A DNA stretch of 41,897 nucleotides from a virus (lineage: Duplodnaviria; Heunggongvirae; Uroviricota; Caudoviricetes): IMG/VR virus record IMGVR_UViG_651053023_000011, positions 1 through 41,897 of that record. One strand, written 5' to 3'. Position 1 is the stretch's first letter. Each line of letters opens with the position of its first letter. Made by a program: the position numbers and the translations under genes. The notes beneath the pieces are model-generated. The model did no database searches and had not been told where the DNA came from. It was given only the letters and a program-made list of their open reading frames with translations. Below, one piece after another: positions 3,130 through 41,897 of this stretch.

Positions 3130-4314
3130 TTAAACACTCGCCACGTTATACCAGGTGCCATTAATCAGTTTCTGAAGCGGACGGTAATACACGCCGCCGA
3201 TGTTATCTGCCGAATTACTTCCGGTTTCCTGCACATTAATACCGGATAACCCGTGGCCTGAAGGTGAGCGAAATGTCCAGGATACCTGGTTACCTCCCGG
3301 GTTGTAATACATTTCGGAACCATAACGCACATCCTGCACGCCGCCATTTCGCTGCTGATAGCGGGCATCAAAGTTTCCGTAGTTTGATGGAACCATCTGC
3401 CCGTTTACGGCAAACGTTATGCTGTTATCCGTATTCCTCTGACTGTAAAAATGCCAGCCAGAATCATCACCAAGCTCTGCAACAACAGGCCTTGAGGAAT
3501 TTCCCCATAGATTAAATCTTGCACTCTTCGTGGAAGAACTGTCACACGACAGCGTGAACTTTCTTAAATTGCCGGTCGAGAGATTTTCTAATGCCAGCAC
3601 ACCGTTTTTTGTAAAACGAAAGGCGTTGTGTCCCTCTGCAAACACATTAATAACACCGCGTCCGCCCCACTTAAAACCGGTATTGCTATCACAGAGCGTG
3701 AGTGATTTTTCACCCAGATTGTTCTCATTACCGATGCCAATCCTGTCACCAATAACCACATCGCCCTGGCGCAGGTTAATGGAAATGGGCCGCAGTGGGC
3801 CAATATCGCCATTCTCGCCCTGACCTTCACTGGTAGGGATAAGGTGCAGGCACTCTTCCGAGCGACGAAAAATCAGACCAAAGGCTTCGTTGAAAATCCT
3901 CAGCGCATTAACACCACGGATTTTCAGTTCCCCGGTCATGGTGTCACCATCACGCTGAACGGCATTTTTTGCCTTATCCACCGTAGGTTTTAATCCGAGG
4001 TTTTCAACAGCCTCATCCTTATCTTCCACATCCGAAAGGTTATTTTTTATCAGCAATGCCTCTTCGTTAATCGCACCGCCCACCAGTAATAATATGGCTT
4101 TATATAGCTGATCGTGTTCTTCTTTATTCAGTTCTATCCCGGCTTTCTCAATGACACCACAGATTTCCTCCTGAATGGCATCCCACATGGCACTGTTCAG
4201 CCAGGTGGCAAGGCGTCCTGTGCGAAGATTTCCGTCAGTAAATCCGTTCTTGCCCGGGCCAAACTTATCTTTTACCGCTGTCAGCGTATCAATCCTGTGC
4301 ATCTTCATCCTCAT
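3130..4314 (-). CDS. tail fibre protein (Mu S / P2 H-type N-terminus, Stf-like distal domain)
   Basis: 394-aa ORF; N-terminal region resembles baseplate-attachment domain of myovirus fibres, C-terminus (NLWGNSSRPVVAELGDDSGWHFYSQRNTD...INGTWYNVASV) resembles lambdoid Stf tips; true start may be an internal Met a few codons in. Confidence 0.7.
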   Translation of the reverse strand: MRMKMHRIDTLTAVKDKFGPGKNGFTDGNLRTGRLATWLNSAMWDAIQEEICGVIEKAGIELNKEEHDQLYKAILLLVGGAINEEALLIKNNLSDVEDKDEAVENLGLKPTVDKAKNAVQRDGDTMTGELKIRGVNALRIFNEAFGLIFRRSEECLHLIPTSEGQGENGDIGPLRPISINLRQGDVVIGDRIGIGNENNLGEKSLTLCDSNTGFKWGGRGVINVFAEGHNAFRFTKNGVLALENLSTGNLRKFTLSCDSSSTKSARFNLWGNSSRPVVAELGDDSGWHFYSQRNTDNSITFAVNGQMVPSNYGNFDARYQQRNGGVQDVRYGSEMYYNPGGNQVSWTFRSPSGHGLSGINVQETGSNSADNIGGVYYRPLQKLINGTWYNVASV

Positions 4315-4879
4315 CTGGATAGGAAAATAAAACGACAGTATGTGACGGACATAATTTATTAATCACGCACTCCGCAACCGTATCCCCCCACGTCCGGATC
4401 GGTGTGTTGCAGGCGTCCGTGCATGTCTGCCACTGAGCACCGGCATCCACCGGCAACGTCACACGCCAGAAATAACGCCAGCGATCCCCCCATTCCGGAT
4501 CGGGGCTTGCATCCAGATTCTGGAACTGTTCGATCGTCACGCCGGTATATCCCAGCGCCTCAAGCTGATCCAGGAAAAACTGCTCATTTATGCCGCCAGC
4601 TACATTGGCTTTTGCTTCAAGACGTTGCTGGCGCTGGCGTAATGTCTGGGTTCCGACAGGAGAACAGGAATCAGGTAAACCATACAATTTTTCATAACGT
4701 TCAATCAGCTCTGTGGACTGACCGGGATCGATTTCAATCACCAGTTCATCAGCCCGCTGGTGAACACGCACAAGCGATGGAGCCAGACCGTCAAGTACAC
4801 CGTCGGTATCTGACCATGCAGGTCCCGGCGGCATCAGGCCATACAACAATTTTGTATAATCATCCTGTAACGTATCCAT
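4289..4879 (-). CDS. baseplate/tail protein, Mu gp48-like (DUF2313-type)
   Basis: 196-aa ORF in conserved position after baseplate J gene; start overlaps upstream stop. Confidence 0.65.
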   Translation of the reverse strand: MDTLQDDYTKLLYGLMPPGPAWSDTDGVLDGLAPSLVRVHQRADELVIEIDPGQSTELIERYEKLYGLPDSCSPVGTQTLRQRQQRLEAKANVAGGINEQFFLDQLEALGYTGVTIEQFQNLDASPDPEWGDRWRYFWRVTLPVDAGAQWQTCTDACNTPIRTWGDTVAECVINKLCPSHTVVLFSYPDEDEDAQD

Positions 4880-38265: not shown

Positions 38266-38292
38266 AGAAGAATATAATTCTTCCGTTTTTTA
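38266..38292 (+). terminator. terminator candidate after four-gene operon
   Basis: GAAGAAT/ATTCTTC stem followed by T6. Confidence 0.45.
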
Positions 38293-38435
38293 CTAACCGT
38301 TTATATGAAAAGCAACCGTGAATTAAGCAGAGTAAAACTGATTTTAATCCTTGCCACAGTGCTGACACTAACTGAAATCATTATTCTCTTTATTGCGCTG
38401 TCAGTCGGTTAAAAATATCGGGATACCACAGACCA

Positions 38436-38624
38436 ATGAGACTGTATTTCACAATAGTAATTTTACTGGCAATTATCGCATGCATTTACGGATTACTCGT
38501 TCCGTTCCTTATATCCATGAAGGATACGATAGCAGTTATTTCTGGCTTTGCACTGGCGTTTCTGACCCCGCCCTGCATTTATGCCATTTACAAGGGTCTT
38601 TCTTTCACTAAGGATAAAAGATGA
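38436..38624 (+). CDS. small membrane protein (two predicted TM helices)
   Basis: 62-aa hydrophobic ORF; stop overlaps start of SPFH gene (ATGA). Confidence 0.45.
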   Translation: MRLYFTIVILLAIIACIYGLLVPFLISMKDTIAVISGFALAFLTPPCIYAIYKGLSFTKDKR

Positions 38625-39448
38625 AAAAAATTATTTTTGCTTTAGCCATTGTTCTGCCGACTATTGGCCTTGTCGGTTGCGATCGCGTTGAACCAGGTAA
38701 TGTTGGCATCAAGGTAAATAAACTGGGCGACGATAAAGGCGTCGGTGAGGTGGTCGGTGTTGGTCGCTACTGGACTGGCTGGAATACTGAAGTTTACATC
38801 TTCCCCACCTTCAAGCAAATGAAGACCTACGATGAACCGTTCAGTTTCCAGATGAGTGACGGTACAACCATCGGCTATCACATTGGCGTGGCCTACAAAG
38901 TTGATCCATCCAAAGTTACCACGGTGTTTCAGACCTACCGCAAAGGCGTGGATGACATTACAGACACCGACCTGCGCCAGAAGATCGCCGACGCACTCAA
39001 CCGACTGGCCAGCAAAATGACCACTGACAAATTTATCGACGGCGGCAAGTCTGAGCTGCTTGATGAAGCTCTTAAAGACATTCAGGCAGAGATGACACCT
39101 ATCGGTATTCAGGTAATGAGCCTCTCATATGTGGGTAAGCCGGAGTACCCGCCTACTGTTATCGACAGCATTAATGCCAAAGTCACGGCGAACCAGAAAA
39201 CACTGCAGCGCGAGCAGGAAGTTAAACAGCGCGAAGCGGAAGCCAACATGTTGCGCGCGGAAGCTGCCGGACAGGCTGATGCGATTCGCACAAAAGCTCA
39301 GGCCGAAGCCGATGCTATTCGTTTACGCGGTGAAGCTCTGCGCCAGAACCCCGGTGTTATGGAGCTGGAAGCCATCAATAAATGGAACGGCACACTGCCG
39401 CAATACATGACCAGCGGTGCTAATACACCATTTATCCAGGTTAAATAA
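38621..39448 (+). CDS. SPFH/band-7 (stomatin/prohibitin-like) domain lipoprotein
   Basis: 275-aa ORF; lipoprotein signal with lipobox LVGC; SPFH-like core followed by Ala/Glu-rich coiled-coil (QREAEANMLRAEAAGQADAIRTKAQAEADAIRLRGEA). Confidence 0.65.
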   Translation: MKKIIFALAIVLPTIGLVGCDRVEPGNVGIKVNKLGDDKGVGEVVGVGRYWTGWNTEVYIFPTFKQMKTYDEPFSFQMSDGTTIGYHIGVAYKVDPSKVTTVFQTYRKGVDDITDTDLRQKIADALNRLASKMTTDKFIDGGKSELLDEALKDIQAEMTPIGIQVMSLSYVGKPEYPPTVIDSINAKVTANQKTLQREQEVKQREAEANMLRAEAAGQADAIRTKAQAEADAIRLRGEALRQNPGVMELEAINKWNGTLPQYMTSGANTPFIQVK

Positions 39449-39488
39449 CTTATATGCCCGGCAAGTCGCCGGGCTAAGGGAAGATCAG

Positions 39489-40292: not shown

Positions 40293-40529
40293 ATGGGCAA
40301 TGTGATTCAACTGGCTCCCAATGAATGGGTTTGTGAAAGCGTTCTTATCGCAATTACCGGGCTCAAACCAGGCACAATTCTCCGGGCCCGGAAAGAATGC
40401 TGGATGGTAGGAAGAGAGTATATTCACGTATCGCCTGACGGTAATCCAAAACCTTCCAGCGAATGTATGTATAACAGAAAAGCAATCGATGCCTGGGTCG
40501 CTTCAATGAAAAACAAACAACCTGGGTGA
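40293..40529 (+). CDS. excisionase-like protein
   Basis: 78-aa basic ORF with GAGGTAA RBS immediately upstream of integrase. Confidence 0.5.
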   Translation: MGNVIQLAPNEWVCESVLIAITGLKPGTILRARKECWMVGREYIHVSPDGNPKPSSECMYNRKAIDAWVASMKNKQPG

Positions 40530-40584
40530 TTTAATACCATGAAATATGTAAGCTCATATCGCTCTTGGGCGTCTGGAGGTATCG

Positions 40585-40836
40585 ATGGATAAAGTCAAAT
40601 ATCCAACAGGCGTCGAAAACCACGGTGGCACATTACGCATCTGGTTTAATTTTAAAGGTAAACGTGTCAGGGAAAATCTTGGTGTCCCTGACACTGCCAA
40701 GAACAGGAAGATCGCCGGAGAGCTGCGGACATCTGTATGTTTTGCCATTCGTACAGGAAACTTTGATTACGCTGCGCAGTTCCCTGACTCTCCTAACCTC
40801 AAGGCTTTTGGGGTAAATAAAAAGAAATTACGGTGA
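40585..40836 (+). CDS. int: integrase N-terminal arm-type DNA-binding domain (separated from catalytic domain by apparent frameshift)
   Basis: 83-aa ORF (TGVENHGGTLRIWFNFKGKRVRENLG...FDYAAQFP) typical of arm-binding domains of tyrosine integrases; stops in an A-run. Confidence 0.7.
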   Translation: MDKVKYPTGVENHGGTLRIWFNFKGKRVRENLGVPDTAKNRKIAGELRTSVCFAIRTGNFDYAAQFPDSPNLKAFGVNKKKLR

Positions 40837-41897
40837 AAGAACTTGAAAAAAAGTGGCTGGATCTGAAACGCATGGAAATCTCTGCAAATGCATTCAATCG
40901 CTATGAGTCCGTTGCAAGAACAATGATTCCGAAAATTGGAGGTAGCAGACTGGTGTCAACGGTGACCAAAGAGGAATTGCTGTATATCAGGAAAGATTTG
41001 CTGACCGGATATCAGAATTCAACGAAAGACAAAGCACCAGCAAGAGGACGGAGCGTCGTTACTGTAAATTATTATATGACGACAATCGCTGGAATGTTTC
41101 AGTTTGCTGCAGATCACGGTTACTTAGAAGCAAACCCCTTCGAGGGAATTAAGCCTCTTAAAAAAGCCAGGGCAGAGCCAGATCCGCTAACTCGTGACGA
41201 ATTTATTCGCCTGATAGATGCTTGCCGGCATCAGCAGACAAAAAACCTGTGGTCATTGGCTGTGTACACAGGAATGCGTCATGGTGAGCTGGTCTCCCTG
41301 GCCTGGGAAGATATCGATCTGAAAGCAGGAACAATTACTATCAGGCGCAATTATACGAAACTCGGTGAGTTCACTCTACCTAAAACTGAAGCAAGTACAA
41401 ACAGGGTTGTGCATCTTATCCAGCCCGCTATCAGTGTCCTGAAAAATCAGGCTGAAATGACAAGACTGGGTAAGCAGCACCACATCAAGGTTCAACTACG
41501 TGAATATGGACGTTCAGTGAATCATGAATGTACTTTCGTATTCAACCCCCAGGTGGTTAGAAAAAGCAAACAGGTAGGTTTTATCTACAAGGTAGATTCC
41601 ATTGGCGACTCATGGGAAACAGCCATTAAGCGTGCAGGCATCAGGCATCGAAAGGCATACCAGTCACGACACACTTATGCGTGCTGGTCATTATCTGCCG
41701 GAGCAAATCCAAGCTTCATTGCCAGCCAGATGGGCCATGCCAGTGCCCAGATGGTTTTCAATGTATACGGAGCATGGATGACTGACAGCAATGCAGAACA
41801 GATCGCAATGCTGAATCAGAAGCTGGCAGATTATGTCCCAATGATGTCCCATAGTCACCAAAGTGACACAAGAGGCCTATTAAAATCAGTGGGTTAG
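40833..41897 (+). CDS. int: tyrosine recombinase / integrase, core-binding and catalytic domains
   Basis: 354-aa ORF with catalytic motifs (R...HxxR in SRHTYACW, C-terminal Tyr region); begins at GTG just after arm-domain stop; ends at window edge. Confidence 0.8.
   Translation: MKELEKKWLDLKRMEISANAFNRYESVARTMIPKIGGSRLVSTVTKEELLYIRKDLLTGYQNSTKDKAPARGRSVVTVNYYMTTIAGMFQFAADHGYLEANPFEGIKPLKKARAEPDPLTRDEFIRLIDACRHQQTKNLWSLAVYTGMRHGELVSLAWEDIDLKAGTITIRRNYTKLGEFTLPKTEASTNRVVHLIQPAISVLKNQAEMTRLGKQHHIKVQLREYGRSVNHECTFVFNPQVVRKSKQVGFIYKVDSIGDSWETAIKRAGIRHRKAYQSRHTYACWSLSAGANPSFIASQMGHASAQMVFNVYGAWMTDSNAEQIAMLNQKLADYVPMMSHSHQSDTRGLLKSVG

Follow-up and report, generated by a model that had tools for sequence, protein, structure and literature searches.

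Among the described membrane systems, the HflK/HflC-FtsH cage (7vhp, 7vhq, 7wi3, 9cz2) comes close to the locus that we analyze here, a pair of overlapping genes in a 41,897-nucleotide stretch of DNA from a virus of the Caudoviricetes (IMG/VR record IMGVR_UViG_651053023_000011, positions 1 to 41,897; the whole stretch is called the window below). The first gene encodes a 62-residue protein with two predicted transmembrane (TM) helices and the second a 275-residue SPFH protein, which is predicted to be a lipoprotein. Very divergent phages share this arrangement, and purifying selection acts on both genes; the sequences thus indicate that the two are real genes and not chance open reading frames (ORFs), and that they form a conserved, mobile two-gene cassette. 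Like the phage SPFH protein, the subunits of the HflK/HflC cage have the SPFH1/2 domains, a long wall helix and a C-terminal tail, and their SPFH domain is periplasmic at the inner membrane, as we predict for the phage protein. Sequence identity is about 17%, and with 23.1 bits against a cut-off of 159.4 for hflK (TIGR01933) and 25.9 against 134.4 for hflC (TIGR01932) we rejected membership in the HflK/HflC families. Moreover, HflK/HflC is a hetero-pair with N-terminal TM anchors, whereas the phage locus has a single SPFH gene with a putative lipid anchor. The separate two-TM partner, a KWxGxLP motif at the C-terminus and the phage-borne location distinguish it further.

A second close relative is the SPFH-NfeD operon (QmcA-YbbJ, 8z5g; YqiJ-YqiK), in which an SPFH gene stands beside the gene of a small polytopic membrane protein and is transcribed with it, as would also hold for the cassette. 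Here the adjacent membrane-protein gene overlaps the SPFH gene by 4 nucleotides, and it is kept in 15 of 16 clusters of the family. The partner itself is of another kind. A preliminary description of the window had proposed a profile search for NfeD (PF01957, an OB-fold); no Pfam family matched the 62-residue protein at E<=0.1, its helices fill residues 2-61 of 62, and NfeD was rejected. QmcA faces the cytoplasm, unlike the phage SPFH protein, which is predicted to be exported as a lipoprotein. For Bacillus subtilis, two reports describe an SPFH protein in the YdjG/YdjH-YdjI (SamGHI) and PspA system that depends on adjacent small membrane proteins of a non-NfeD type (PMC8581546; bioRxiv 10.64898/2026.02.06.704340). 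Compared by description, YdjI differs in that it is cytosolic, recruits PspA and belongs to a host stress operon, not to a phage cassette. RexA and RexB of phage lambda, encoded close to the immunity region of this temperate phage, likewise make up a membrane-associated unit of two genes. They have no homology to the pair, which lies outside the interval from cI to its terminator, is also found in virulent phages and, unlike RexA/RexB, is probably repressed in the lysogen, as judged from the DNA upstream of it.

Orthologues in the same overlapping two-gene cassette are present, uncharacterised, in phages N4 (gp19-gp20), phiE125 (gp44-gp43) and phiP27 (L05). A role in adsorption or DNA entry has been suggested for a phage SPFH protein (PMC13239085), and many genome papers mention phage SPFH genes without assigning a function. 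Membership in the SPFH superfamily and the existence of a catalogued phage family (phrog_200; N4 gp20; phiP27 L05) were already known. Absent from the searchable literature are the near-universal non-NfeD two-TM partner, its fusions to SPFH and lipoprotein anchoring as a family trait; we found annotation-level mentions there and no paper on a function or a conserved partner of the cassette. In the searched literature, no study linked the phage SPFH cassette to defence, exclusion, lysis or NfeD, or dealt with the function of N4 gp20. The earlier statement that no characterised system has this composition agrees with this, as neither the literature searched nor PADLOC contained one.

Structure and membrane location of the two proteins

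The pair consists of the following elements.

38436 to 38624, + strand: ORF of the 62-residue protein, a predicted helical-hairpin inner-membrane protein; matches phrog_1130 (E=2.5e-23)
38610 to 38614, + strand: Shine-Dalgarno sequence AAGGA of the SPFH gene, within the 3' end of the small ORF (read from the sequence)
38621 to 38624, + strand: ATGA overlap of the small-ORF stop with the SPFH start, ...AAAAGATGAAA (read from the sequence)
38621 to 39448, + strand: ORF of the 275-residue SPFH/Band_7 protein, a predicted lipoprotein; matches phrog_200 ('lipoprotein', E=2.7e-114)
38621 to 38680, + strand: predicted lipoprotein signal peptide, residues 1-19, with lipobox L-V-G-C (read from the sequence)
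38684 to 39244, + strand: SPFH/Band_7 domain, residues 22-208 (Pfam envelope and structure model)
39152 to 39346, + strand: single long helix, residues 178-242 (65 residues), rich in Ala, Glu, Gln and Arg (structure model)
39380 to 39400, + strand: family-specific C-terminal motif K-W-N/D-G-x-L-P (family alignments)

We found that the Band_7 domain (PF01145) of the larger protein scored 109.2 bits against a cut-off of 23.6 (E=3e-31), which places the protein in the SPFH superfamily. AlphaFold2 (AF2), supplied with a 61-sequence alignment, gave a model with a mean predicted local distance difference test score (pLDDT) of 79.3, in which strands in a beta-rich part (residues 19-94) are followed by helices (96-158), a further strand (163-175), the unbroken long helix and a poorly ordered C-terminal tail. 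When this model was compared with the PDB by Foldseek, only SPFH cage subunits were returned. The best match was HflC (7vhq_G, 3e-13), which led a top group with PHB2, erlin1/2 and HflK (down to 1e-11), and HflC, HflK, PHB1/2 (prohibitin-2, 8rrh_B), erlin1/2 and stomatin all fell between E 3e-13 and 1e-10, with flotillin and QmcA (E 6e-8) as further matches. By sequence, HflK was the nearest PDB protein (E 4e-4). According to the model, the 275-residue protein is an SPFH superfamily member whose architecture follows that of the subunits of HflK/C, prohibitin, erlin, stomatin and QmcA. Residues 178-242 align with the coiled coils of HflK and of prohibitin-2 (6iqe), and we assign this modelled helix as the wall-forming coiled-coil element of SPFH cages. 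In the C-terminal motif, W255 and G257 are invariant and P260 is nearly so. The pLDDT of the monomer model is low there, and the segment is a candidate for a cap-forming element.

The SPFH gene, with its ribosome-binding site inside the small ORF and its start codon in the overlap, is by its sequence translationally coupled to the small ORF. The ratio of nonsynonymous to synonymous substitution rates (dN/dS) was 0.02-0.03 for the SPFH gene, indicating that purifying selection on it is very strong; the small ORF, at 0.12-0.30, is under purifying selection as well. Mosaic joints are visible: nucleotide similarity to phage P88 (90%) and to P1-like phages (86%) starts at about 38669, in the lipobox codons, and stops at about 39415, some 30 nucleotides before the SPFH stop codon. 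Conservation of the mature SPFH region is therefore far higher than that of the signal peptide and of the small gene. In these alignments, the mature SPFH part appears to be conserved or exchanged apart from the signal peptide and the two-TM gene.

The signal peptide is MKKIIFALAIVLPTIGLVG, with predicted cleavage before the cysteine and a mature start of CDR. The codon of Cys20 lies at 38678-38680, with Asp at +2 and Arg at +3, and the lipobox cysteine is conserved in at least 90% of the family alignment. Of 110 close homologues, 97 share this Asp, which at the +2 position is a signal for inner-membrane retention in E. coli (PMC4623201). In 15 of 134 representatives, the lipobox cysteine is replaced by an uncleaved N-terminal TM anchor, for which the inner membrane is the only possible site. 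Because of the Asp at +2 and of these anchors in some relatives, we infer that the mature lipoprotein would stay in the inner membrane. N4 gp20 starts its mature part with C-Y-D-R, and Tyr at +2 reportedly (Seydel et al. 1999) can likewise retain lipoproteins in the inner membrane. In most members the lipidated cysteine and the first strand are just 2-3 residues apart, which forces SPFH1 to lie right at the membrane and also fits an inner-membrane site.

PHROG annotates the family of the 62-residue protein as 'membrane protein' and assigns it to the category 'moron, auxiliary metabolic gene and host takeover'. The segments of the protein are TM1 (about residues 3-26), TM2 (about 31-52) and a basic C-terminal tail, and AF2 (pLDDT 69) gave helices at 2-26 and 31-61 with a turn of four residues between them. 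Small proteins of the family share the motif [YF]G-x-[LV]-x-P-x-[LM]-[IV]-S, which runs from the end of TM1 into the turn, and have basic termini. In the window this conserved turn, periplasmic in the predicted topology, reads P23-x-L-I-S-M-K-D-T. Across the family, the N-terminus carries a mean net charge of +2.3, the turn one of -0.3 and the C-terminus one of +2.5. By the positive-inside pattern, we therefore predict a hairpin with both termini in the cytoplasm (N-in/C-in) and its conserved turn in the periplasm. The preliminary description had read this locus as a two-helix protein coupled through ATGA to a lipoprotein with the lipobox LVGC, an SPFH-like core and a long Ala/Glu-rich coiled coil, and all of these readings were borne out.

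Distribution of the cassette

A cassette was taken to be a small gene matching phrog_1130 followed by an SPFH gene matching phrog_200, the two overlapping or less than 40 nucleotides apart, and the pair in the window has this form. The same arrangement was found in strikingly different phages. A two-TM ORF lies directly 5' of the SPFH gene, overlapping it or a few nucleotides away, in the 186-like phage P88 (P2/186-like), and adjoins it on the 5' side in the P1-like phage RCS47 (where it is unannotated), in the SSU5-like phage-plasmid PhiR41_1 and in a Cohaesibacter prophage. In Burkholderia phage phiE125 the cassette is gp44/gp43. The virulent coliphage N4 carries it as gp19/gp20, with an SPFH protein that is 62% identical to the prophage protein; for phiP27 L05 the identity to the SPFH protein of the window is 100%. 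The partners in N4, P88, PhiR41_1 and RCS47 also match phrog_1130, and PHROG spreads the partner across several families. In P1-like phage-plasmids (RCS47, 3731-4775 of our locus L003), the cassette stands between upl/plp and a tRNA gene, behind which comes the DnaB-like helicase gene, at what we take to be the tciABC position of reference P1.

Relatives of the SPFH protein were detected by tblastn in 413 phage records, mostly of virulent lineages, including N4-like, rV5-like, FelixO1-like, LUZ24-like, phiCbK-like, jumbo, crAss-like and Lak phages. When 1.84 billion cluster representatives were searched, 3019 clusters matched at E<=1e-3 and 228 (50% identity) at E<=1e-30. An automatic scan flagged the two-TM ORF in 188 of 209 loci; the exceptions that were inspected are intact ORFs missed through the hydrophobicity threshold or a wrong start call, and three of the 209 loci start at the SPFH gene and hence have no upstream DNA. 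Homologues of the small protein were found 5' of the SPFH gene in about 200 IMG/VR loci. A locus search with the alignment of close homologues returned near-identical prophages only, and a locus scan with the representative P0173 gave no match. Clustering of the SPFH proteins at 70% identity yielded 16 clusters, 14 of which have a separate partner, one a fused partner and one a different neighbour. The small ORF is thereby conserved with the lipoprotein, separate or fused, in 15 of 16 clusters, and the co-occurrence that the preliminary description had wanted checked is confirmed. The remaining cluster is that of the LUZ24-like Pseudomonas phages (L208, L209, L212; 2725-2943), in which a 72-residue protein (phrog_23984), soluble in its N-terminal part and with one TM segment at the C-terminus, is encoded ahead of the SPFH lipoprotein gene in place of the hairpin and may be an alternative partner.

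Natural in-frame fusions of the two proteins occur in about 17 of the best 150 representatives (about 12% of the distant relatives; P0160, P0164, P0167, P0172, P0176, P0178, P0183, P0184, P0202, P0203, P0211, P0214, P0226, P0241, P0242, P0251, P0272; also L217 3342-4412). They run from the two-TM module through a basic linker and a signal peptide with lipobox to the SPFH part and keep the P-x-L-I/V-S motif, providing Rosetta-stone evidence for a joint function of the two proteins. The fusions still carry the lipobox cysteine and may be polyproteins that are cut by signal peptidase II. When all flanking ORFs of 27 diverse loci were compared with each other, no third conserved neighbour emerged apart from repressor-type helix-turn-helix (HTH) proteins in temperate phages, and a third component of the unit was rejected on this basis.

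Expression of the pair and its prophage setting

Around the pair, we located the following features.

35684 to 36376: S24/HTH CI-like repressor gene, divergent from a cro-like gene
36399 to 36427, + strand: intrinsic terminator-like hairpin (36399-36417) plus T-run (consensus scan)
36444 to 36472, + strand: sigma-70 promoter-like site TTGACA-17-TATTAT, 11/12, best in the region (promoter scan)
36452 to 36474: 23-nucleotide operator-like element overlapping the -10 hexamer, a putative repressor-binding site
36513 to 36932: CII-like/DicA-like HTH gene, first in the operon; matches phrog_4836 (annotated CII-like regulator, E 8e-51)
38267 to 38291, + strand: weak AT-rich hairpin (38267-38283) plus T6, 5' of the pair (-4.9 kcal/mol, z -0.64)
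39456 to 39474, + strand: stable GC-rich hairpin directly 3' of the SPFH stop, without a T-run
40293 to 41897: xis/int

The operon begins with the CII-like/DicA-like HTH gene and continues with three unassigned ORFs, the pair, a DUF5406 gene, a DUF4222 gene, a 48-residue ORF, xis and a frameshifted int. The pair was placed correctly between repressor and integrase in the preliminary description, with the repressor on one side and xis/int on the other. Its further proposal that the pair occupies the rexAB position did not hold. The terminator of cI follows 23 nucleotides past the gene, with an 8-bp stem of which five pairs are GC, and the pair lies 2 kb further on, past four other ORFs. The operator-like element at the promoter behind this terminator contains a perfect palindrome, AATAGGT-AA-ACCTATT (AATAGGTAAACCTATT); a stretch between cI and cro, 35592-35614, matches the element at 78% identity. 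The lambdoid operators OL and OR have such an appearance, and the two elements are candidate OL/OR operators of this immunity type. The promoter would be a repressor-controlled pL analogue that heads the operon with the pair.

Nor is the pair a terminator-bounded unit of its own, as had been supposed. The hairpin upstream is not a convincing terminator, the one downstream lacks the T-run, and the consensus scan detected no + strand terminator on either side of the pair. The promoter scan found no + strand promoter in the 176-nucleotide gap 5' of the pair, the sole nearby site being a 9/12 match inside the small ORF, and a dedicated promoter in the gap was rejected. No promoter was found 5' of the pair in the P1-like RCS47 either. 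The gap contains a 35-residue ORF (38305-38412, + strand) with one TM segment (MKSNRELSRVKLILILATVLTLTEIIILFIALSVG), which is unannotated. It is intact in about 50 phiP27-like loci with the same intergenic DNA, with mostly conservative changes; it is gone where the upstream DNA differs, and its ATG is lost in one variant. We rejected it as a third component, as its presence tracks the upstream DNA and not the pair.

In other phages, the pair also stands among early genes. It lies in the early operon between cox and a replication gene in P88, just past the RNAPII subunit genes in N4, and next to recombination and replication genes in PhiR41_1 and in the Cohaesibacter prophage. Because the cI terminator and the operator-bearing promoter precede it, we place the pair in a pL-like early operon and not in the rex slot; in this prophage, it is probably an early lytic gene pair and not a rex-like defence expressed in the lysogen. 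The same two elements, together with the mostly virulent carriers, do not support the earlier view of an exclusion or abortive-infection module made by lysogens. Indeed, a lysogen-restricted role is unlikely, because the cassette is mostly found in virulent phages and in early and replication modules.

The window is a phiP27-like prophage at yecE of E. coli UMNF18 (100% identity over the region), a porcine diarrhoeal isolate. The region is 97.7% identical to the Stx2e phage phiP27 and 93% identical to Stx2a and Stx2d phages. It is present in 570 of 5426 complete E. coli genomes, at 419 chromosomal and 240 plasmid places. The integrase gene is broken by a frameshift into ORFs 40585-40836 and 40833-41897 (+ strand), which the Prokaryotic Genome Annotation Pipeline (PGAP) marks 'frameshifted', and the window's last base is the end of the int stop codon. 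In phiP27 the integrase is intact with 437 residues. Given the split integrase, the UMNF18-type prophage may be unable to excise. PGAP labels the small gene 'hypothetical protein' and the large one 'SPFH domain-containing protein'. Older phage records name the large gene 'serine protease' or 'lipoprotein'; frequently, they give no annotation for the small ORF. The label 'serine protease' or 'putative serine protease' is carried by the phiP27 and Stx2-phage records (AJ298298, LC5678xx), and several of these records (AJ298298, LC5678xx set) lack the small ORF. A Pfam search found no protease domain in the SPFH protein, and because of this the label appears to be a legacy error.

Possible functions of the pair

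Our preferred reading, to which we give a probability of roughly 45%, is that the two proteins form a two-subunit SPFH membrane scaffold, which acts in the lytic phase and holds or shields a host inner-membrane client. To our knowledge, all full-length SPFH proteins with a solved assembly form a large membrane ring or cage. Because the phage protein has an anchor, SPFH1/2, a wall helix and a C-terminal tail like its caged Foldseek matches, it would, by analogy, assemble as a homo-oligomer into a ring or cage at the periplasmic side of the inner membrane. As the stoichiometric, membrane-embedded base of this cage, the hairpin protein would touch SPFH1 with its conserved turn, a role comparable to that of the N-terminal TM helices of HflK/C or of NfeD in QmcA-YbbJ. 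Such a 1:1 base is more plausible than a client of lower copy number, given that translation is coupled, that fusions exist and that the periplasmic turn is conserved. Transcribed from the operator-bearing, pL-like promoter, the cassette would be expressed during lytic development; elsewhere, the many virulent carriers require lytic expression. The cage would then fence off patches of the inner membrane and hold or shield a conserved host client, which is the weakest step of the proposal. Because the carriers are mainly virulent and the conservation is very strong, the target is probably a conserved inner-membrane component of the host, engaged during infection, and HflK/C and prohibitins as models make FtsH-type protein quality control the leading candidate. 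As the outcome, the infected envelope would stay productive until lysis.

Several points weigh against this scaffold. The cage and its 1:1 base are analogies. In Foldseek, the similarity to HflK/C is no greater than that to prohibitin or erlin, and with the HflK/HflC equivalog hidden Markov models (HMMs) far under their cut-offs there is no FtsH-specific signal. His or Lys at +3 weakens the retention mediated by Asp (PMC4623201), and the +3 residue is Arg here. In distant relatives the +2 residue is mostly Ser or Thr, and the inner-membrane placement, which is not certain family-wide, may differ outside the Enterobacteria. The fusions with a lipobox cysteine could be cleaved by LspA. Repressor control is read from one related pair of sequences, with one further match that has 3 mismatches. 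In L200 (1412-3819), L213 and L168, genes for an S24 repressor-like protein, a LuxR/GerE-type HTH protein, the two-TM protein and the SPFH protein follow each other on the same strand. The gaps in the L200 lineage are 19 and 63 nucleotides with no + strand terminator or promoter detected between, and the pair may be co-transcribed with the repressor and expressed in lysogens of this lineage. Finally, a Pasteurella prophage SPFH protein is detectable in ordinary cultures (PMC9872710), and lysogenic expression is possible in some phages.

The main rival to an FtsH-type function is superinfection exclusion during infection, which we consider unlikely and still the strongest of the alternatives. 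Here the cage and the hairpin would alter the inner membrane or the periplasm such that incoming phage DNA is stopped, in infected cells as with Imm/Sp of T4 or Llp of T5, and possibly in lysogens. The envelope location and the early-operon position fit such a block. So do the moron-like patchy spread, with movement among unrelated phages and a variable P1 locus, the carriage of the region by 570 E. coli genomes, the PHROG class of the small protein and, for the L200 lineage, a possible joint transcript of the pair and a repressor-like gene. However, neither protein matched any family of PADLOC-DB 2.0 at E<=0.1, and membership in a known anti-phage defence system was rejected; the searched literature also gave no link between SPFH proteins and exclusion. 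Exclusion genes are expected to hold fast-evolving specificity determinants, unlike this cassette, which is conserved under strong purifying selection in phages of hosts from Enterobacteria to Caulobacter and Bacteroidota. In the prophage of the window, the terminator and operator-bearing promoter ahead of the pair speak against exclusion as well.

Quite improbable is a tuning of the lysogeny decision, in which the SPFH protein would mimic or displace HflK/C and shift the activity of FtsH on a CII-like regulator and with it the lysogeny frequency. Control of lysogeny in the manner of HflK/C has already been proposed for phage SPFH proteins (PMC8540360), and the preliminary description named CII in particular. 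HflK and HflC as the closest PDB sequence and best Foldseek match, the predicted HflK/C-like topology with a periplasmic SPFH domain at the inner membrane, and the match of the operon's first gene to the CII-like phrog_4836 are all in keeping with it, and an HTH regulator precedes the pair in L200 and L168 too. Most carriers, however, are obligately virulent and have no lysogeny decision to make; because virulent phages carry the cassette, a CII-specific role cannot be general. The scores below the equivalog thresholds and the single SPFH gene in place of a K/C pair add to these objections.

We regard a caged toxin as highly improbable. The small protein does resemble class II holins and small membrane toxins in size and shape, and the tight coupling of the genes recalls toxin/antitoxin pairs, so that one may imagine a holin-like two-TM pore former held by the SPFH cage until a trigger releases it, with depolarisation and abortive infection as the result. 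Against this stand the mainly virulent carriers, the natural in-frame fusions of both parts and the lack of a match to a defence model; moreover, the conserved feature is the periplasmic turn and not a pore-lining face.

Still less credence is due to a surface or virulence factor of lysogenic conversion, a lipoprotein made by the lysogen, shed in vesicles and acting on the animal host. Its precedent is PM0222 of Pasteurella multocida, a prophage HflK/C-like protein of 25-35 kDa found in cultures and outer-membrane vesicle (OMV) preparations, which activates Toll-like receptors 1/2 (TLR1/2) and whose deletion attenuates virulence (PMC9872710); the host strain of our prophage is itself a porcine diarrhoeal isolate. 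Yet PM0222 is set beside the phrog_200 family by description only, TLR2 activation is general to lipoproteins, virulent environmental phages (of Caulobacter, Erwinia and Pseudomonas) widely carry the cassette, and Asp at +2 speaks against outer-membrane or vesicle targeting. A spanin-like or antiholin-like device for lysis timing is equally hard to credit: a membrane-protein gene overlaps a lipoprotein gene as in Rz/Rz1 and N4 is known for delayed lysis, but the architecture is the reverse of spanins, with a large SPFH lipoprotein and a TM protein without periplasmic domain, and the pair lies in early regions far from the late and lysis genes. A two-component spanin was rejected: there is no i-spanin with a periplasmic coiled coil, the lipoprotein has 275 residues, an SPFH domain and Asp at +2, and the pair lies beside xis/int and not in a lysis cassette.

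The finding has consequences for annotation and for the biology of SPFH proteins. In records of Stx phages, the 'serine protease' label is misleading and the small partner gene is frequently missed, and neither a temperate lifestyle nor a defence system of a prophage should be deduced from the presence of this SPFH gene. Structural work on SPFH cages (HflK/C, prohibitins, erlins, stomatin, flotillin) is active, with the choice and control of their clients as the issue. A compact version, one SPFH lipoprotein with a partner of about 60 residues that is sometimes fused to it, has spread across very different phage lineages under strong purifying selection, which implies a useful, probably general manipulation of the inner membrane during infection. 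Since N4 is a virulent phage amenable to genetics and has orthologues of the pair as gp19-gp20, the question lends itself to direct tests. Beyond the scaffold that we favor, one may speculate, with more doubt than confidence, that the pair represents an unrecognised, phage-specific class of two-subunit SPFH nanocages, with a lipoprotein wall and a two-TM base at the periplasmic side of the inner membrane, that captures a conserved host inner-membrane machine such as FtsH early in infection; the class would span no fewer than 228 clusters (50% identity) and 413 phage genomes, N4 as well as crAss-like and Lak phages among them. If this is true, such nanocages would be a general viral device for taking over bacterial membrane quality control, and the cassette would offer a minimal, tractable model of how SPFH cages select their clients.

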